Source: a virus. Taken from it: 45,608 nucleotides of DNA. The notes beneath the pieces were generated by a model. The model worked only from the letters and a program-made list of their open reading frames with translations. It made no database searches and had not been told where the DNA came from. A program made the position numbers and the translations under genes. The stretch spans positions 1-45,608 of IMG/VR virus record IMGVR_UViG_3300022917_000004; one strand, written 5' to 3'. This document shows, piece after piece, positions 1-45,608 of the stretch (within the stretch, counting starts at the first letter, position 1; each line of letters starts with the position of its first letter).

Positions 1-50
1 GATATGCGCCGTGGCCCGTGGTGCTGTGGTGCCGCCTCCGCAAGCACCCC
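1..50 (+). repeat. Terminal direct repeat, copy A (identical to 45559..45608)
   Basis: gatatgcgccgtggcccgtggtgctgtggtgccgcctccgcaagcacccc is present at both ends of the window. Confidence 0.95.
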
Positions 51-29088: not shown

Positions 29089-30288
29089 ATGTCCAGAACG
29101 CCAACCATGTCCGTCACGGAACTAGAGTCGCTGCTAGGTCCGCGCGGTCAACTGATCGTAACCACCGAAAACCGCGCCACCGCTCGCAAGTGGCTTACTG
29201 CACAAGGCTTGCCGTCTTTGTTTGTTGGCGGCTTGGCCATGCGCGCCATCGGAGCGGCTTACAATGAAACCGATGGCAAGGCGCTTGAACGCTTGAAGGC
29301 GCAAGCCGCAGACGCCACCGCAGACGCCGCAGACGAAGACTCCGCGACACTGCCGCAGACGTTGCCGACATTGCCGCAGACGCTGCCGACAATCCCGACG
29401 CTGCCGAACGACAAGGCAGCGGCGTTGCAGACGTTGCTAGGCTTGCTTGGCAGTAGTGGTGGCGGCTTAGACGCGGACGCTGTCCGCGACATTGTCCGCA
29501 AAGAATTGCCGAACCTGATTCCCGTGACGCGGCTTGAGATCGTGACTGCAAGCGGGACAAAAGACCACGGCAGCAAGCCGCGCCACAAGACTCTGCCGAC
29601 GCTGATTCAGGCGCTTGCACAAAAGCTACCTGTTGCGCTTGTCGGCCCCGCTGGCAGCGGCAAAACCACCGCAGCGGAACAAGCGGCAGAAGCCCTAGAG
29701 GTTAAGTTTTACATTCAAGGCGCGGTGCAAGGCGCGCACGAATTGCTAGGCTTTGTCGACGCGCACGGCCGCTATCAATCCACGCCATTTCGCCAAGCCT
29801 TTGAGCATGGCGGAATCGTTTGTCTGGATGAACTAGACGCTGGCGACGCTGCGGGGATTCTCGTCTGCAATTCGGCGCTGGCGAATGGTTACATGGCTTT
29901 CCCCGACTCCACCGAACCCGTAAAGCGCCACGCTGATTTCGTCGTCGTGGCTTGCTTGAATACTTACGGAACAGGCGCAGACCGCGTCTATGTCGGCCGC
30001 AATCAAATGGATGGCGCGACAATGGATCGCTTTGTCGTGCTGTTGTGGAATTACGATGAACGCTTAGAGCGCGCCATTTGCGGTAACGACTCATGGTGCG
30101 ACCGCGTACAGGCGCTGCGGTCAGGCGCTGCAAAGGAAAAAGCGCGCGTTGTCATATCGCCACGCGCTTCAATCTATGGCGCGCGTTTGCTTGCCTCTGG
30201 CATGACTCAGCACGTTGTCGAAGAGTCTGTTGTCTGGAAAGGCATCGACTCCGAATTGCGCCGCCGCATCGAAACCGCAGCGGCTTAG
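29089..30288 (+). CDS. AAA+ ATPase (AAA_5 / MoxR-CobS-like), 399 aa
   Basis: Walker A GPAGSGKT, Walker B IVCLDELD, ...MDRFVVL sensor region; AGGA RBS; repetitive acidic/LPQT linker in the N-terminal third. Confidence 0.8.
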   Translation: MSRTPTMSVTELESLLGPRGQLIVTTENRATARKWLTAQGLPSLFVGGLAMRAIGAAYNETDGKALERLKAQAADATADAADEDSATLPQTLPTLPQTLPTIPTLPNDKAAALQTLLGLLGSSGGGLDADAVRDIVRKELPNLIPVTRLEIVTASGTKDHGSKPRHKTLPTLIQALAQKLPVALVGPAGSGKTTAAEQAAEALEVKFYIQGAVQGAHELLGFVDAHGRYQSTPFRQAFEHGGIVCLDELDAGDAAGILVCNSALANGYMAFPDSTEPVKRHADFVVVACLNTYGTGADRVYVGRNQMDGATMDRFVVLLWNYDERLERAICGNDSWCDRVQALRSGAAKEKARVVISPRASIYGARLLASGMTQHVVEESVVWKGIDSELRRRIETAAA

Positions 30289-31804: not shown

Positions 31805-31814
31805 GCCAGCGCCC

Positions 31815-31898
31815 ATGATTTCGCTGGCTTGCGTTGTCCTACCCCGCATTGGCGCGGCGCTATTGGCGATTGCCATTTGCGCCGCGCTGTTCTCCTAA
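31815..31898 (+). CDS. Mini-ORF, 27 aa hydrophobic peptide (MISLACVVLPRIGAALLAIAICAALFS)
   Basis: Read directly from the sequence; no clear SD, so weakest of the three. Confidence 0.3.
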   Translation: MISLACVVLPRIGAALLAIAICAALFS

Positions 31899-31918
31899 CC
31901 CCAAACCGGAGTCGCACC

Positions 31919-32002
31919 ATGCGAATCCTTTTCGATCTAGTCGCCAGCGCGACTCTTATCGCCGCGCTTTTCGTTTTCGCCGCGCTGGCTTGCGGCGCTT
32001 AA
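31919..32002 (+). CDS. Mini-ORF, 27 aa hydrophobic peptide (MRILFDLVASATLIAALFVFAALACGA)
   Basis: GGAG 7 nt upstream of the ATG; a single predicted TM. Confidence 0.4.
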   Translation: MRILFDLVASATLIAALFVFAALACGA

Positions 32003-32026
32003 ACCCTCTCACAAGGAATCTGAATC

Positions 32027-32173
32027 ATGCTGGTAATCGCAGGCGGAATCATTCTCGCCGTTGCTTTGGTGTTTGTTGCCTTAGTCGTGCTCGCCTTCCT
32101 CCCCGAAATAGTACGCGTCACAGGCGCGCTGTTGCTTGGCGGCTTCGTCCTACTCAAACTATTCGGAGGATAG
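32027..32173 (+). CDS. Mini-ORF, 48 aa two-TM peptide (MLVIAGGIILAVALVFVALVVLAFLPEIVRVTGALLLGGFVLLKLFGG)
   Basis: AAGGAA upstream; immediately followed by a strong terminator. Confidence 0.45.
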   Translation: MLVIAGGIILAVALVFVALVVLAFLPEIVRVTGALLLGGFVLLKLFGG

Positions 32174-32190
32174 AGTCCTGCGACCACTTG

Positions 32191-32221
32191 CCGGGGGCAT
32201 CGCGCCCCTGGTCTTTTTTTT
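32191..32221 (+). terminator. Rho-independent terminator ending early operon A
   Basis: CCGGGGGC-atcgc-GCCCCTGG hairpin followed by TC and then 8 T (32214..32221). Confidence 0.7.
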
Positions 32222-32306
32222 GTTGCGGTCTTTTGGTCCGCGTCCCCTGCCCCACCCTACCTGGCGGGCGCGGCGCAGCTCCGTCGAAAAACGTCTCTAA
32301 TATTTT

Positions 32307-32388
32307 TTATGGATTCCCAAATTCCTGGGAAAATCCCCCGCGACGAAAAGTTTCGGGCCATAAATTTTCTTATGGATTCCGAAACTCC
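32307..32388 (+). repeat. Two 19-bp direct repeats TTATGGATTCC(C/G)AAA(T/C)TCC, 63 bp apart
   Basis: Copies at 32307..32325 and 32370..32388 in the convergent non-coding gap; 17/19 identical. Confidence 0.6.
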
Positions 32389-32430
32389 AGACTAAAAAGA
32401 CGGCCTGGCGACGCCGAAGTTCTCCACCGA

Positions 32431-32985
32431 TTATCCCCTGTGGTTGGGCTGAAAAAGACGGCCACCCCTCGATTTCAGATTTTCAGGCGCACTGGGCAAC
32501 GCCAGCACGTCGACCGTCTCACAGGTTGGGTCGTCGAGCACCGCCGCCCGCAACTCCACCGCCCACTGACTCAGACGCCACAAATGCCTCGGCTCGATGT
32601 GCTCGCCCCGCTTGGCCATCGCCCCCAACACAACAGCCGACAGGTGGATCTCCTGCCACGCCGGGTTGTCGGCTTTGTCGAGCATCGCCCTCAACTGATG
32701 TTGTGCGCCGTGGCCGATTGGCTTTTTCCGCCCCACCATCCGGCCAAGCAACGCCTCCCCGTACCAGCGCCCCGGCTCCATTGCCACTAGGAGCCTCACC
32801 CATTGAGCGGAGACCCTCACCACCCCTCGGGAGACCATCCCGAACACGGGACCGCTCCCAGAGGCCCAGCGGGCCTTGGTACTCAAGCGGCTGCGGTCCC
32901 AGCGTTCCTCCTGCCGCCGCACCCGGCGCTGTACCTTCGCCACCTGCGCGTCCAAGGCGGCGGTGTCTTTCCATAGTCTCAGCAT
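32431..32985 (-). CDS. Hypothetical protein, 184 aa
   Basis: Internal ATG 32985 (MLRLWKDTAALDAQ...) overlapping the stop of the upstream gene by 7 nt; the longer ORF to 33081 overlaps that gene. Confidence 0.5.
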   Translation of the reverse strand: MLRLWKDTAALDAQVAKVQRRVRRQEERWDRSRLSTKARWASGSGPVFGMVSRGVVRVSAQWVRLLVAMEPGRWYGEALLGRMVGRKKPIGHGAQHQLRAMLDKADNPAWQEIHLSAVVLGAMAKRGEHIEPRHLWRLSQWAVELRAAVLDDPTCETVDVLALPSAPENLKSRGGRLFQPNHRG

Positions 32986-33323
32986 CGCGCCTTCCGTCTG
33001 TGAGTGTGTCGGGCGATCCGCAGCGCCTCGGCAAAGTCGGGCAGATCCGCCCACGTCTTTTCCGACAAGTGCATCACCCAACCAAACTCGTCCTCATTCT
33101 CCCACAACCGGCGTCGGTCGATACAGTAGGTTCCGTCCCGACACTCCAGCCCGTACTTGGTCACGGCCCATTGCCGTCCCTGCCAAACAATTGGAGCCAA
33201 CACTTCGCCCCGACAGTAGACCGCGCCCGGGGTCTGGTATCGCGGCGGGTCGGCCAAACAGGTCGCCGCGTATTCGACCAGGGATTTGATCGAGGTCTTT
33301 TTATTCTGCTTCTGCGTCTGCAT
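32979..33323 (-). CDS. Hypothetical protein, 114 aa
   Basis: ORF track; purine-rich leader with GGAGGGG; sensible composition. Confidence 0.6.
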   Translation of the reverse strand: MQTQKQNKKTSIKSLVEYAATCLADPPRYQTPGAVYCRGEVLAPIVWQGRQWAVTKYGLECRDGTYCIDRRRLWENEDEFGWVMHLSEKTWADLPDFAEALRIARHTHRRKARC

Positions 33324-33362
33324 TTATTTTAATTCCCCTCCTATTTCCCCTCCCCGCCCTCT

Positions 33363-33578
33363 GCGTGACATTCCGCACCCGTATAGGGGTGCGGAAACCT
33401 TGTCACGCTCAGAAAGTAGGGTTTTCTGGCCTTGTCACGCTCTGTCACGCTTGTCACGCCACTAGCTAACCCCTTTGGCGTAAAGGGTAATTTCTTGTCA
33501 CGCTTTTCTGTCACGCTTTGTCACGCTGTTTTGGTTGTGTTCGAGAAATTTTCTAGCGTGACAAAGATCTTTGTCACG
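33363..33578. repeat. Iteron-like array: 10 copies of TGTCACG(C), 8 direct and 2 inverted
   Basis: Direct copies start at 33401, 33433, 33443, 33452, 33496, 33509, 33519 and 33572; inverted copies (GCGTGACA) at 33363 and 33556; a 10-bp-stem hairpin at 33371..33396. Confidence 0.85.
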
Positions 33579-33599
33579 TTTTGTAGGGTTTGTTGGGCG

Positions 33600-35618
33600 C
33601 TAATCGTCCTCGTCTTCCGAATTATCGGGATTATTTTGCAAATACCCTTGCTGCCGCAGCCGCGAGATCGCCTTCCGCATGGCGACGTCTTTTACCGCCG
33701 CGAGCAAGTTGTCGGGTTCGTTGGCCTTGAGCCAGACCAAGAGACCCTTGGCCCCCACCGTGTGGACTTCGACGTCTTTGGCCTTGGCCCAGCGCGAAAT
33801 CGTCTCAGCCAGCGCCTTTTCAGACGGCGTCATTTCCTCGGAAAATTCTTCCTTGGCGTCGTCGCACCACACGGCCACCGCCGACGTGACGTCGAGGCCC
33901 TCCGGTGTCTTTCCCAGGTTCACTACTTCGAGCCGGAACCACAGCGGCGAAGACGGCAGCTCGCCGTCTCTCACGCGGAGCACCTTGAAGCTCCGTCTTG
34001 AACCCTTTTTGCCCTGCCCCGGATCGTGGACCTCGATCAGCGTATCCACCCAGCCTCGGAACGCGGAGCTACCGCGCGGTCCCTTGCTGGCGTCTTTACC
34101 CGGGTGGTGGATCACCAAGACGTTCGCCCCGGTGGTGTTCTTCACGATCTTGGCGTTGTGAATGAACAGGTTCATGTGTTCGACGTCCGTGCCGCCAGCC
34201 AGTGCCTCGGACAGCGTGTCGATCACCACCAGCCTGATGGGCTGGCCCATTTCCTCGCCGCGCTGTTTGATAAGCTCGCACAGCCGTTTCGCGTCATAGG
34301 TGCCGGTCCGCATGTCGATGGCGTAGCGCAGGAGCCTCATGGGCACGTTGGTTTTGCCGTGCTTGGTCCGGAGTGCCCTAAACCGCTTTCGGATCGTTGG
34401 GCCGCCTTCTGCGGCGACATAAAGGACCGCTCCCTGCGTGACCTTCCGGCCGTTCCACGGGGTGCCGGTGGCGATGGCGTGGCATATGTCGAGGGCCGCG
34501 AAGGATTTCCCCGATTCAGGGTAGCCATAGATCGCGCTGATTTCGCCTTGGCCCATGATGCCGTGGATCAGCGGGTTGGACTGATTGTCCAGCGCCGTGT
34601 CGGCGGCTTCGTCGAAGCTCTCGTCCAGCATGGGTTCGCGGACGTGTTTCGAAAAAGTGCTCGGGTCGTCTTTGTCGTCTTTCGGTTGTTGGGCCGCTGT
34701 AGGTTGTTCATCCCCACTATTCTCAACATCGAACTCATTCAAAGCACTTGCCGCGCCCGGAGCGTTCTGGCCGTAAGCGTAAGCATTCCTGACCTTTGTT
34801 CGCAGTGCGTCGTAGGCCCAAGGCGGCACGGCTTTTTGTTCGTTCCAATTGTCGAACATCAGGTCCAGGCATTTTTCCTCGGAGATCCCAAGGTCTTTTA
34901 TGTGAGCGGCCACCCGATAGGTCGCTTGATCGCCCCCAGATCCCTCGATGGCTTCTGGCGCGTGGTTGATGATCCATCGCTTTACGGTTTCGATGGCCTC
35001 TGGCCGGTCCAGTTCACCGATGGGTTGCTTGTTGTTCGTGGATTCGTTTTGTTGTTGGGCCGGATCGCCCTTGGCTGCGGCCGTCTCCAATTCCGCTGGC
35101 ATAAAAGCGATTTCGTCGAACTCGCCTACCCGATGGTATTCCACGCCCTCGATGATCGCGCCTTCGCCTATGACGTAGCCTCTGACACCTCGCACATCGA
35201 CATTTGGTGCAATGCGGGATTGCGAGTTGGGAATCGGTCTGAGGCTCCAATAATATTTGTGGATACCGTTGGGAGTTTTGATCGTGCGTGTGTCTGCCAG
35301 ACCAAACAGGGTGTGTTGCGCCAGTGCTTTTGCGCCTAATTGGCCGGGTTTCATGTCGTAGTCGACGACGACCAGATAGACGTCGACCTCGACGCCGTTG
35401 ATGACGATTCGTTTTGTGAATCCGCACGCGACGGCTGGATTGAAGTCCTCCAGTTCCCACAAGCGAGTCAGCGTTTCGCTATTGGTGGTGGCGCGCTCTG
35501 GCCATTTGGCTATGGCTGGGGTTTTTGCGTTCGGCTTGGCCGGGAAGATTCGCAGTTGATCGGTGTTTGCACTTCGTAGTGCGGCTTGGAGCAGTTTCTT
35601 TTCGCTGCGCGACAGCAT
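33600..35618 (-). CDS. Bifunctional primase-polymerase / replicative helicase (Prim-Pol N-terminus, PriCT-like middle, RepA/AAA_25-like C-terminus), 672 aa
   Basis: IFPAKPNAKTPAIAKW...VVVDYD; ATYRVAAHIKDLGISEEKCLDLM; Walker A GYPESGKS and LVVIDTL Walker B. Confidence 0.8.
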   Translation of the reverse strand: MLSRSEKKLLQAALRSANTDQLRIFPAKPNAKTPAIAKWPERATTNSETLTRLWELEDFNPAVACGFTKRIVINGVEVDVYLVVVDYDMKPGQLGAKALAQHTLFGLADTRTIKTPNGIHKYYWSLRPIPNSQSRIAPNVDVRGVRGYVIGEGAIIEGVEYHRVGEFDEIAFMPAELETAAAKGDPAQQQNESTNNKQPIGELDRPEAIETVKRWIINHAPEAIEGSGGDQATYRVAAHIKDLGISEEKCLDLMFDNWNEQKAVPPWAYDALRTKVRNAYAYGQNAPGAASALNEFDVENSGDEQPTAAQQPKDDKDDPSTFSKHVREPMLDESFDEAADTALDNQSNPLIHGIMGQGEISAIYGYPESGKSFAALDICHAIATGTPWNGRKVTQGAVLYVAAEGGPTIRKRFRALRTKHGKTNVPMRLLRYAIDMRTGTYDAKRLCELIKQRGEEMGQPIRLVVIDTLSEALAGGTDVEHMNLFIHNAKIVKNTTGANVLVIHHPGKDASKGPRGSSAFRGWVDTLIEVHDPGQGKKGSRRSFKVLRVRDGELPSSPLWFRLEVVNLGKTPEGLDVTSAVAVWCDDAKEEFSEEMTPSEKALAETISRWAKAKDVEVHTVGAKGLLVWLKANEPDNLLAAVKDVAMRKAISRLRQQGYLQNNPDNSEDEDD

Positions 35619-35736
35619 TTCGAGACGCCTGTGTGTGGGTTGGCGAATAACAAGTCACAACAAAGCACTAGCCGAAAAGACAGATAACAGACGGGTTTGC
35701 GGGCTGTCCGGTGTTTTGTTTAGCACCGGACATTTG

Positions 35737-35764
35737 TTGACAGTGTGCTTTGTAACTGTATTGT
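35737..35764 (+). promoter_or_regulatory. Candidate rightward early promoter (TTGACA, 16 nt, TATTGT) embedded in the inverted repeat GTTGACA/TGTCAAC
   Basis: Consensus -35 at 35737..35742; -10 at 35759..35764; inverted-repeat arms at 35736..35742 and 35764..35770. Confidence 0.5.
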
Positions 35765-35833
35765 GTCAACGCACTACGATCTCACACAAAACGAATTTTT
35801 GAAAGCTCGCTCCCCTAACCTAACTAAACCAAA

Positions 35834-36145
35834 ATGAAGAAAGCTAAACCAATGGATAGACGGAAAGTCCTCGCGCGGGTCAAGGAAGCCGTGAACAATG
35901 GCTTCTCTGCTACGCGGCTGGGGTATCTCGCGTCTGGCGATCCGCTGTTTGTGAAGAAGCTCCGCAACGGTCATCCGTTCAAGCCCGCCACGTTGTGGCG
36001 TGCTTACGAGACCATCTGCGAGTTTGACCGGCCTCGATTCTCTTGGGTCGCACAAGGTCGCCGCAAGTCCAACAAGACTCGGAAGAACGCAGTGCTGGGC
36101 CACAAGCCTAAGCGTGCTCCGTCTAAGTCCGCCGACGTCGTCTGA
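35834..36145 (+). CDS. Hypothetical basic protein, 103 aa (possible early regulator)
   Basis: First ORF after the promoter; Lys/Arg-rich C-terminus; no clear SD. Confidence 0.5.
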   Translation: MKKAKPMDRRKVLARVKEAVNNGFSATRLGYLASGDPLFVKKLRNGHPFKPATLWRAYETICEFDRPRFSWVAQGRRKSNKTRKNAVLGHKPKRAPSKSADVV

Positions 36146-36154
36146 CGTCTGCGG

Positions 36155-36721
36155 TTGTCTGATCGCGTCGTGAATACCTCTCACAGTGGGAGGCCCTCTG
36201 TGGCCAAACGCACTTACCTCTGCCTGGATCTCGGGACTATGACCGGCTTTGCGCTGCTGACGTGCAATGTGGCTGGCTACAATGTGATCTCGGGATTTTG
36301 GGATTTCAGACCGGGGCGCTTCGATGGCGCTGGCGTTCGCTACGTGCGTTTTCGCAAGCAGCTACTGGAGATTCTGGAGTCTTCGAAACCGGACGTGGTG
36401 CTGTTCGAGGAAGTCCGCCGACACATCGGCGCGGACGCGGCGCGGGTCTACGGCGCGCTGTTTGGGGTGGTCACGTCTTTATGTGAGGAATTGGCGATTC
36501 CCTACGAGGGTATCCCGGTGGGGACCATCAAGAAATACTGGACCGGCAAAGGCAACGCCTCAAAAGACCTGATGATCGCGGAAGCTCACGACCGGGGCTA
36601 TTGGAACGTGTCAGACGACAACGAGGCCGACGCCATTGCGCTGGCACACTTTGCCCATGATCGAGACGTTGGAGACCATCCCGGCGACGGGCCGGATGCT
36701 GGTCCGAGTGTGCTGTCATGA
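36155..36721 (+). CDS. RuvC-like Holliday junction resolvase
   Basis: LCLDLGTMTGFA, VLFEEV and DDNEADAIALAHFA supply the acidic catalytic residues of the RuvC fold; non-ATG start, exact start uncertain. Confidence 0.75.
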   Translation: MSDRVVNTSHSGRPSVAKRTYLCLDLGTMTGFALLTCNVAGYNVISGFWDFRPGRFDGAGVRYVRFRKQLLEILESSKPDVVLFEEVRRHIGADAARVYGALFGVVTSLCEELAIPYEGIPVGTIKKYWTGKGNASKDLMIAEAHDRGYWNVSDDNEADAIALAHFAHDRDVGDHPGDGPDAGPSVLS

Positions 36722-40332: not shown

Positions 40333-40688
40333 GTTTGAGATTGGTCGTTTTAGAATCGCCCTACGCGGGCCAGACCGAGAAGGACATCGAAGACAACTGC
40401 GAGTACGCGCGCTGTTGTCTGCGGGATTCCTTGCGTAGAGGCGAAGCGCCGCTCGCGTCGCATCTGCTCTACACGCAGCCCGGCGTGCTCCGCGACGACA
40501 TTCCAGACGAACGCAAACAGGGCATCGCTGCTGGCTTGGCGTGGTCCGATTTCGCAGACGCGATGGTCGTCTACACCGATTACGGAATTTCGCCCGGCAT
40601 GGAAAAGGCCGTGGCCTACGCCATCGCGCACGATTTGCCGGTTGAATACCGCTCACTGACGGAGAAGCCCGCAAATGCTGTCGGGTGA
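40329..40688 (+). CDS. Nucleoside 2-deoxyribosyltransferase-like (DUF4406-like) protein, 119 aa
   Basis: LVVLESPYAG ... AMVVYTDYGISPGMEKAVAYAIAHDLPV resembles the NDT-fold beta1 and C-terminal motifs. Confidence 0.4.
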   Translation: MSLRLVVLESPYAGQTEKDIEDNCEYARCCLRDSLRRGEAPLASHLLYTQPGVLRDDIPDERKQGIAAGLAWSDFADAMVVYTDYGISPGMEKAVAYAIAHDLPVEYRSLTEKPANAVG

Positions 40689-45530: not shown

Positions 45531-45608
45531 ATGAACCTGTTTCGACCACGCTACAAACGATATGCGCCGTGGCCCGTGGTGCTGTGGTGCCGCCTCCGCA
45601 AGCACCCC
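45531..45608 (+). CDS. 5' part of the junction-spanning 48-aa Cys-rich ORF (continues at 51..119)
   Basis: ATG 45531 in the context CGAGGACGCTATG; open to the end of the window. Confidence 0.5.
   Translation, partial: MNLFRPRYKRYAPWPVVLWCRLRKHP
45559..45608 (+). repeat. Terminal direct repeat, copy B (identical to 1..50)
   Basis: Exact 50/50 match to the window start by direct comparison. Confidence 0.95.

Follow-up and report, generated by a model that had tools for sequence, protein, structure and literature searches.

A lineage-specific repeat array following a Prim-Pol/AAA_25 helicase gene is a probable replication origin of an uncultured phage

Introduction

Where does an uncultured phage begin to copy its DNA, and which of its proteins reads the starting site? 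We address both questions for the viral record IMGVR_UViG_3300022917_000004 of IMG/VR, whose 45,608 bp we analyzed in full and refer to below as the window, and in which ten copies of the heptamer TGTCACG crowd together directly after a gene for a 672-aa Prim-Pol/RepA-type helicase. A first-pass annotation of the same DNA had proposed two functions for this cluster, an iteron-type replication origin beside an initiator or helicase gene or an array of regulator-binding sites, and had listed as candidate binders the Prim-Pol/helicase protein itself and the winged-helix proteins encoded at 40675, 41940 and 45334. Comparison with related elements, in which the array is syntenic and keeps its layout while its sequence is lineage-specific, favors the first of these functions: the array is probably the phage's origin of replication, of a type located right after the gene of a self-loading initiator-helicase, and its repeats appear to be read by the C-terminal tail of that helicase.

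The repeat array

Across the window TGTCACG occurs 13 times, and ten of these copies lie within 33364-33578, eight in direct orientation (starting at 33401, 33433, 33443, 33452, 33496, 33509, 33519 and 33572) and two inverted, reading GCGTGACA (starting at 33363 and 33556), so that the ten-copy cluster at 33363-33578 stands exactly as first described. Whether calculated from base composition or from the remainder of the window, the expectation is 0.014-0.028 copies per 216 bp, and the probability of at least ten copies in 216 bp is ~1e-22 to 1e-25. No other 7-mer reaches an equal local density anywhere in the window, and no second TGTCACG cluster is found in it even when one mismatch is permitted, in agreement with the earlier statement that the motif is not clustered elsewhere; the clustering of the ten repeats is thereby confirmed as real. 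An additional C follows the heptamer in nine of the ten copies, the exception being that at 33572, which reads TGTCACGT, and the repeat unit extends beyond 7 bp, with an extended consensus on the helicase-sense strand of AGCGTGACAA, also written a.AGCGTGACAaag.

The array lies in the 276-bp gap, measured correctly in the first-pass annotation, between the helicase stop (33600) and the start of a 114-aa gene (33323), and its parts are listed in Table 1. It opens 21 bp from the stop codon with an inverted pair (inverted repeat 1, IR1; 33556-33578), whose copies at 33557 and 33572 make the perfect 22-bp palindrome CGTGACAAAGATCTTTGTCACG; a second pair (IR2; 33363-33409) is formed by the copies at 33401 and 33364, which flank a GC-rich hairpin in inverted orientation. 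Neither arrangement is mentioned in the first-pass annotation. The two triplets of direct copies between them have internal spacings of 10/9 bp and 13/10 bp, or about one helical turn as previously proposed, and the reported 10-bp stem of the hairpin is likewise borne out, with a loop of 6 nt. The segment between IR1 and the first triplet is AT-rich relative to the genome, which has a GC content of 0.59, and similar AT-rich stretches occupy the helicase-proximal side in the relatives L122, L162 and L165; it is a candidate DNA-unwinding element.

Table 1. Parts of the array and neighboring features in the window, ordered in the direction of the helicase gene
Feature	Coordinates	Strand	Basis
672-aa replication protein: Prim-Pol, AAA_25 helicase, C-terminal domain, acidic tail	33600..35618	-	Pfam, profile, PHROG
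C-terminal domain (~90 aa, residues 583-672), proposed repeat reader	33603..33872	-	model, profiles, co-variation
IR1: two inverted copies, perfect 22-bp palindrome	33556..33578		arms 11 nt, 100% complementary
AT-rich segment between IR1 and triplet B	33527..33555		GC 0.37-0.43 (30-bp windows)
Triplet B: three direct TGTCACGC copies at 33496, 33509, 33519	33496..33526	+	motif positions
Central spacer (36 bp): small hairpin (33471-33487) and CCAA.G.GTT motif	33460..33495		scan and five-genome alignment
Triplet A: three direct TGTCACGC copies at 33433, 33443, 33452	33433..33459	+	motif positions, alignment
Single repeat copy CTTGTCACGCT, one arm of IR2 beside hairpin	33399..33409	+	motif positions, alignment
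GC-rich hairpin, TA-rich center: TTCCGCACCC-GTATAG-GGGTGCGGAA	33371..33396		inverted-repeat scan
Inverted copy GCGTGACA abutting hairpin, second arm of IR2	33363..33370	-	motif positions, alignment
Purine-rich leader, duplicated GGAGGGGAA Shine-Dalgarno-like units before the 114-aa ATG	33324..33362	-	direct reading, direct repeat
114-aa gene, lineage-specific, within exchanged cassette	32979..33323	-	relatives' gene content
184-aa gene, family kept downstream of array in close relatives	32431..32985	-	homologs

Conservation in relatives

A search of related phages at the syntenic position, suggested in the first-pass annotation, finds that all close relatives examined (L122, L001, L127, L123, L124, L125, L129 and L126) have an array at the same site, immediately past the helicase stop, their helicases being 40-62% identical to that of the window. 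L001, a virome contig with a 49% identical helicase, carries nine copies of the window's own motif in the same layout. In the other close relatives the repeat is GCGTGACAA (L122, helicase 60% identical to the window's), GTGTGACA (L127, 51%), GCGCGGCAA, of the GCGCGGCA type (L123, 52%), ACTTCGGGGTAA (L124, 41%), ACCGGGGAAA (L129, 40%), TCGGCGGA (L125, 41%) or CCGACAA (L126, 62%), and the lineage-specific repeats also include GCGTGACA, TTCGGGGTAA and CCGGGGAAA. What stays constant is the layout, made up of an inverted pair, a triplet, a spacer, a second triplet, a single copy, a GC hairpin with a TA-rich center and an inverted copy. Inverted pairs equivalent to IR1 are present in L122, L001, L123, L127 and L129, triplets co-linear with triplet B in L122, L001, L127 and L123, and in a five-genome alignment the repeat positions are co-linear and change in lockstep, while the spacers drift. 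At the scale of the family, at least five copies of some 7-mer stand right after the helicase stop in 30 loci (the window and 29 fetched relatives) out of the 48 with a measurable helicase stop, prophage-like elements in Alphaproteobacteria among them.

Differences in the repeat from lineage to lineage exclude a host factor common to them all, and the reader must be encoded by each element itself. This bears on the proposal that the array is a host-derived REP-like element or a binding site for a host factor, which would suit the presence of TGTCACG arrays in many unrelated viral contigs with GC contents of 43-71%. Yet the close relatives keep the layout and change the repeat sequence, the motif is rare elsewhere in the window, and the arrays found elsewhere again adjoin primase-helicase genes; we consider a host element extremely improbable.

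The same comparisons inform the regulatory alternative, in which the array would be mainly a multi-site operator where a cooperative regulator acts on transcription of the 114-aa and 184-aa genes to the left, or on read-through out of the helicase gene, without a role in replication initiation. A promoter-like pair of hexamers on the minus strand, GTGACA-18-GAAAAT, overlaps IR1, one inverted copy directly adjoins the 114-aa gene's leader and ribosome-binding site, and the next gene always has the same orientation in the close relatives, all of which speak for an operator. However, the array follows the helicase gene whatever comes next, the small genes being different or absent in L001, L122 and L125, and in L131 it lies between convergent genes and thus needs no downstream gene. 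It co-varies with the helicase tail and with no regulator, its ten sites, two inverted pairs and family-wide palindrome are more than a promoter operator needs, and many unrelated elements with AAA_25 helicases show this architecture too. Since a convergent neighbor, as in L131, does not separate the array from the helicase gene, the regulatory half of the earlier proposal does not hold as the main explanation, in which capacity we judge it unlikely, but it survives as a secondary role in controlling the leftward genes, which is compatible with our data and with the promoter-like pair in IR1.

Two observations concern the motifs themselves. The sequence CCAA(C)G.GTT in the central spacer is kept in the window, L122, L001, L127 and L123 despite their differing repeats, and may be a site for a conserved factor; the small hairpin of the same spacer is a terminator-like scan match, CCCTTTGGCGTAAAGGG. 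As for the heptamer, arrays of TGTCACG (at least six copies per 300 bp) occur in 36 of 120 scanned IMG/VR loci (L002-L121, GC 43-71%) vs 6 of 119 and 14 of 120 for shuffled 8-mers, a modest and only indicative enrichment in counts taken among the matches listed, and TGTCACG was rejected as a special motif. In 12 of these array-bearing loci the array follows the 3' end of a primase-helicase gene, from two different families, with L001 as a thirteenth case.

Recognition of the repeats

The 672-aa protein combines a Prim-Pol domain (residues 15-175, Pfam E=1e-18) with an AAA_25 helicase domain of the RSF1010 RepA type (residues 336-510, E=1e-33), and its PHROG matches are primase/helicase families. 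A profile of the family searched against solved structures finds RSF1010 RepA as its best match (PDB 1G8Y, E=1e-9), followed by RAD51 paralogs. Two natural exchanges connect the remaining C-terminal domain of this protein with the repeats. The DNA of L126 is 93% identical to that of the window over 37812-34687 and 90% identical over 32860-32172, and the block between these flanks has been replaced as a unit, from the helicase domain and tail through the repeats and the small gene to codon 42 of the 184-aa gene, the repeats being co-inherited with the helicase C-terminus. In the prophages L162 (Mixta) and L165 (Erwinia), the N-terminal parts of the helicases are 85% identical and the helicase domains 82%, vs 34% for the last 85 residues, and the origin scaffold is kept while every repeat position has switched between GCGCAAC and CGGGACA. 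More generally, among pairs with a helicase-domain identity of at least ~68%, tail identity is 43-100% where the repeat is the same and 27-39% where it is different; the pair L127/L001, whose repeats are single-nucleotide variants, has a tail identity of 60%.

The helicase gene of L126 (a Logan SRR18465912 contig) is itself a hybrid, with a Prim-Pol half near-identical to the window's and a helicase half and tail of the L124/L129 lineage (window 34687-32860), which indicates recombination within the gene.

A winged-helix-like fold is a possible structural basis for recognition. Sequence-profile and Pfam matches of the tail, obtained with the family profile, are weak and nearly all to winged-helix domains, and the homologous tail of the relative P0009 is modeled as H1-S1-H2-H3 followed by a beta-hairpin wing, that is, as a winged helix, whose leading Foldseek matches are all winged-helix proteins (Fur, MCM6, ORC2, H1 and BlaI; probability up to 0.99, E=0.03-0.5). 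By homology, the window's tail may be winged-helix-like.

Other proteins of the locus do not account for the specificity. The 103-aa protein encoded upstream of the helicase was rejected as the specificity determinant, since the window and L124, with unrelated repeats, encode versions of it that are 96% identical. The 184-aa family was rejected as well, since it is conserved across repeat types: its N-terminus, MIEDLIxLNR, is common to genomes with different repeats, and the L126 counterpart is ~90% identical at the DNA level from residue 42 on, while the repeats differ. The product of the 114-aa gene was set aside as reader because two genomes with the window's repeat do without the gene: L001 lacks it, and in L122 an unrelated 136-aa gene takes its place. 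Of the candidate binders first proposed, the three winged-helix proteins find no support in the family, and it is the Prim-Pol/helicase protein that is favored, through the co-variation of its tail with the repeats in natural swaps.

Several results weigh against this assignment, or against the origin reading as a whole, besides the promoter-like pair described above. The AlphaFold2 model of the window's own tail (pLDDT 79.5) contains four helices, no strands and no wing, and a Foldseek search with this domain returned nothing significant. Between the window and L122, which share the same repeat, the tail is 43% identical vs 74% for the helicase domain, the tail thus diverging faster. A family-wide Mantel-type test of repeat similarity against tail identity, with helicase identity controlled, was not significant (partial r = 0.08, permutation p ~0.10). 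A helix signature, K/R-x-A-F-x-R, failed as a predictor of TGTCACG, as the signature-bearing L130, L131 and L132 carry GCAAGAA, GCGGACA and CCCGGACA, respectively. Finally, the suggested check of cumulative GC skew places a minimum at 34285, ~700 bp from the array, in keeping with an origin there, but the skew is confounded by gene orientation. Given the non-significant family-wide test and the failed helix rule, we treat the tail's role as reader as a well-supported inference from sequence comparison rather than a demonstration.

These points leave a small but real chance that the array is an origin or initiator-binding site whose repeats are read by a separate small DNA-binding protein, which then recruits the helicase; candidates would be unannotated small open reading frames (ORFs), the 184-aa family protein, or an OmpR-type winged-helix protein as in some relatives. 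RSF1010 sets a precedent, using a distinct initiator, RepC, with a homologous helicase (PMC8567376), and both the lack of a significant structural match for the window's tail and the non-significant global correlation between tail and repeat agree with such an arrangement. Small OmpR-type winged-helix (Trans_reg_C) genes lie near the helicase in L125 (2089-2538) and L132 (2681-3004), where their products could be separate binders of the origin or of a promoter, which makes a separate reader possible in some relatives and is a further point against the tail. On the other side, the exchanged cassette of the window holds no such gene except the lineage-specific 114-aa one, the 103-aa and 184-aa proteins stay conserved where the repeat type changes, and between L162 and L165 the helicase tail is the only strongly diverged coding segment beside the switched repeats. 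Separate initiators of the Rep_3, RepC, DnaA or lambda O type were not found among the replication-module ORFs scanned, a set from which some small ORFs of the window were left out.

The GC palindrome

In contrast to the repeats, the hairpin within IR2 is a constant element, of the type CCCC-T(A/T)TA-GGGG. Hairpins of this kind, defined by a perfect GC-rich stem of at least 7 bp and a TA-rich center, are present in 17 of the 30 family arrays vs 2 of 378 control windows, and in 13 of the family arrays the hairpin lies between a repeat and an inverted repeat. Those of L162 and L165 are identical although their repeats differ, and hairpins also stand beside AAA_25 helicases without a Prim-Pol domain or with RepB_primase in its place. 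As it is kept with AAA_25 helicases of differing primase and repeats, the hairpin accompanies the conserved helicase core. We rejected an intrinsic terminator as its function, in the window and in relatives, since a T-run follows it on neither strand and the hairpin is therefore not a canonical terminator. By analogy with the ssi hairpins of RSF1010 (PMC8567376) and the stem-loop origin of pRN1 (PMC4234260), we infer that it may be a loading, melting or priming site.

Fusions of an IncQ-type RepB_primase to AAA_25 are found in P0044, P0047, P0052 and L167 (1587-3614) and represent natural RepB'-RepA fusions; in L167, a C-run/TA/G-run hairpin follows the helicase stop codon.

Origin model and comparison with known systems

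How might such a site work? In the model that we favor, the 672-aa Prim-Pol/RepA-type helicase would recognize the 8-10-bp repeats (AGCGTGACAA) through its winged-helix-like C-terminal domain, the two phased triplets would concentrate protomers, and IR1 next to the helicase stop together with IR2 around the hairpin would set up complexes of opposite orientation. The duplex would then open at the AT-rich stretch or at the CCCC-TATA-GGGG-type palindrome, the latter perhaps extruding as hairpins, the ring helicase would load onto the exposed single strands, and the fused Prim-Pol domain would make the first primers for the phage PolA (42266-44257).

Arrays of short repeats are not confined to origins, as some centromeres (R1 parC, for example) and terminase sites (P1 pac, lambda cosB) are built in the same way, and this likeness is one reason to consider that the array is instead a partition (centromere-like) or packaging (pac/cos-type) recognition site. 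Another is that the first and last 50 bases of the window (1-50 and 45559-45608) are identical, an overlap that makes it a probable complete assembly of a circular or terminally redundant genome (~45.56 kb) but does not reveal the physical ends. Genes of the ParA, ParM or ParB type, however, are neither nearby nor among the ORFs scanned, the site accompanies the helicase gene in phages and integrative elements alike, and it lies far from the structural genes (left of 28954). We regard a partition or packaging site as very unlikely.

The principle of the proposed origin is known from several systems, namely SaPI/PICI Rep, P4 alpha, pRN1 and the lambdoid O/ori cassettes. It would work in the manner of the origins of the Rep proteins of the Staphylococcus aureus pathogenicity islands (SaPI), for which binding of the winged-helix C-terminal domain to 6-12 repeats immediately downstream of the rep gene is experimentally established (PMC9371898). 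The corresponding feature here is the set of ten copies in 33363-33578, starting 21 bp past the stop at 33600. As proposed for our helicase, SaPI Rep doubles as initiator, and the two systems share element-specific repeats and, in SaPI5, a primase-helicase fusion (PMC9371898). The SaPI repeats have opposed orientations around a melting region (PMC9371898), to which the two inverted pairs of the window (33556-33578 and 33363-33409) may correspond. They differ in the motor, which is AAA+ (SF3/MCM-like) in Rep vs RecA-fold AAA_25 here, in the length of the repeats (5-6 bp vs 8-10 bp), and in the conserved GC palindrome with a TA center that stands between convergent repeats here. In addition, the SaPI repeats flank an AT-rich center, whereas the AT-rich patch of the window (33527-33555) is off-center and the GC content of its central spacer is moderately low.

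The Sulfolobus plasmid pRN1 has its origin directly after a gene for a Prim-Pol-helicase-winged-helix protein, and this origin depends on a stem-loop (PMC4234260). Its ORF904 thus resembles the window's protein in architecture and in the position of the origin just downstream of the replication gene, but has an SF3 helicase, a 100-nt stem-loop origin without repeats and an archaeal host.

In the helicase itself the best solved relative is that of IncQ plasmid RSF1010, whose RepA-type hexameric helicase contains a homologous AAA_25 domain and whose primase likewise belongs to the archaeo-eukaryotic superfamily. Its oriV contains, besides repeats, inverted repeats that form hairpins and are used as priming sites, and RepC acts as a separate initiator (PMC8567376). 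Three proteins are thus at work in RSF1010, with RepC as the repeat reader, vs one polypeptide here and no RepC among the scanned replication-module ORFs. The RSF1010 repeats amount to ~3.5 copies of ~20 bp, so that 3-4 long repeats compare with ten of 8-10 bp in the window. Likewise, its ssiA and ssiB are two 40-nt sites vs a single 26-bp palindrome here, which could, by analogy, supply an ssiA/ssiB-like hairpin on each strand, and its primase is RepB' vs Prim-Pol here, while relatives of the window's protein include RepB_primase-AAA_25 fusions.

P4 alpha is a single protein with primase and helicase parts whose C-terminal domain binds the origin by reading octamer repeats, TGTTCACC. The order of functions within one polypeptide is that of the window's protein, but the domains are non-homologous, the primase of alpha being of the Toprim type and its helicase of SF3, and P4 needs a second repeat cluster (crr), none of which is present in the window even with one mismatch allowed. 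In lambdoid phages, the repeat-reading domain of O and the ori repeats are exchanged together between similar phages, and the L126 and L162/L165 swaps behave likewise; lambda differs in that ori lies inside the O gene and in that O is not a helicase and needs P and the host DnaB. Iteron plasmids of the Rep_3 type differ as well, as the genes flanking the array have no Pfam or PHROG match to Rep_3. Set against these systems, the differences are the RepA/AAA_25 RecA-fold motor in place of SF3 or AAA+, the fusion of initiator, helicase and primase functions that IncQ divides among RepC, RepA and RepB', and the palindrome between convergent repeats; in the literature searched, we found no description of this AAA_25-helicase origin type or of TGTCACG as an origin repeat.

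A broader reading, which we hold tentatively, is that a single polypeptide, amounting to a fusion of the three IncQ proteins, serves a two-part origin as initiator, helicase and primase at once. The fast-evolving tail would read the lineage-specific repeats, and the conserved helicase core would read the CCCC-TATA-GGGG palindrome, which is found family-wide between convergent repeats and would be the loading or priming site. With a primase of either the Prim-Pol or the RepB type, the module would be found widely among proteobacterial phages and prophage-like elements, and swaps of its repeat and tail cassettes would let co-resident elements escape cross-talk.

For an uncultured phage of ~45.6 kb, the analysis thus gives the probable position of the origin and the protein most likely to read it. 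It also points to a recurring origin design for RepA-type (AAA_25) primase-helicases, a large family that has received little study and occurs in phages and integrative elements, many of which belong to Alphaproteobacteria. In this design the repeats and the fast-evolving tail vary, and the GC palindrome with a TA center is constant. Being modular in this way, it suggests a means by which competition among related elements for initiators is avoided; the natural swaps are ready-made material for studying specificity switches, and cassettes of this kind could be used to build minimal replicons and orthogonal origin-initiator pairs.

Genome context and further observations

The structural genes of the window occupy the minus strand up to ~28.9 kb, and a replication module runs on the plus strand from 35834, encoding a RuvC-like resolvase, a DUF2800 nuclease, a single-stranded DNA-binding protein of the Gp2.5/Enc34 type, PolA and an HNH endonuclease. 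The phage lacks near relatives in culture, and no DNA match to 32900-36200 was found in cultured phages. By PolA the closest cultured phages are the Ralstonia phages RpY1, DU_RP_II and C22 (~44%), and the Prim-Pol gene of RpY1 has a different C-terminal half and is not followed by repeats. Most genomic relatives of the helicase come from Alphaproteobacteria, a hint that the host belongs to this class; prophage-like elements of Mixta, Erwinia, Aurantimonas and Azospirillum are among the relatives. There are no tRNA genes in the window and no known RNA families in 32900-33900.

Downstream of the array, the product of the 114-aa gene has no Pfam or PHROG match, and a homolog search with the 184-aa protein returned three close sequences only; homologs of the latter are encoded in L001, L123, L124 and L125. 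The helicase protein ends in an acidic stretch, NNPDNSEDEDD (33603-33635), with similar ends in close relatives, reminiscent of the acidic tails through which T7 gp4 and gp2.5 contact polymerase.

Among the scanned IMG/VR loci, opposed sets of TGTCACG flank an AT-rich or low-complexity center in L085 (5692-5974), L065 (888-1173) and L109 (2221-2503), where the arrays adjoin Zn-ribbon (P4-like) primase-helicases in a SaPI/PICI-like layout with the window's repeat. Elsewhere, TGTCACG arrays lie within ORFs, in L014 (13666-13908), L019 (2743-3025) and L069 (2506-2752) as well as in L022, L071, L080, L090 and L115; these ORFs belong to two unannotated protein families, an arrangement reminiscent of the lambda ori inside O. 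A separate tandem array of ~14 CCCTGGTGCG(CTCG) units is found in L124 (6690-6880) downstream of a 243-aa gene and has no counterpart in the window.

Two further regions of the window deserve mention. The apparent gap at 31805-32430 contains two small plus-strand ORFs for the hydrophobic peptides MRILFDLVASATLIAALFVFAALACGA and MLVIAGGIILAVALVFVALVVLAF..., followed by a hairpin with a T-run, and has a strongly negative GC skew. At 29300-29400, six copies of CGTCTGC/GCAGACG lie inside an AAA_5 ATPase gene and constitute a coding repeat (TLPQTLPTLPQTLPTIPTLP) rather than a regulatory array.

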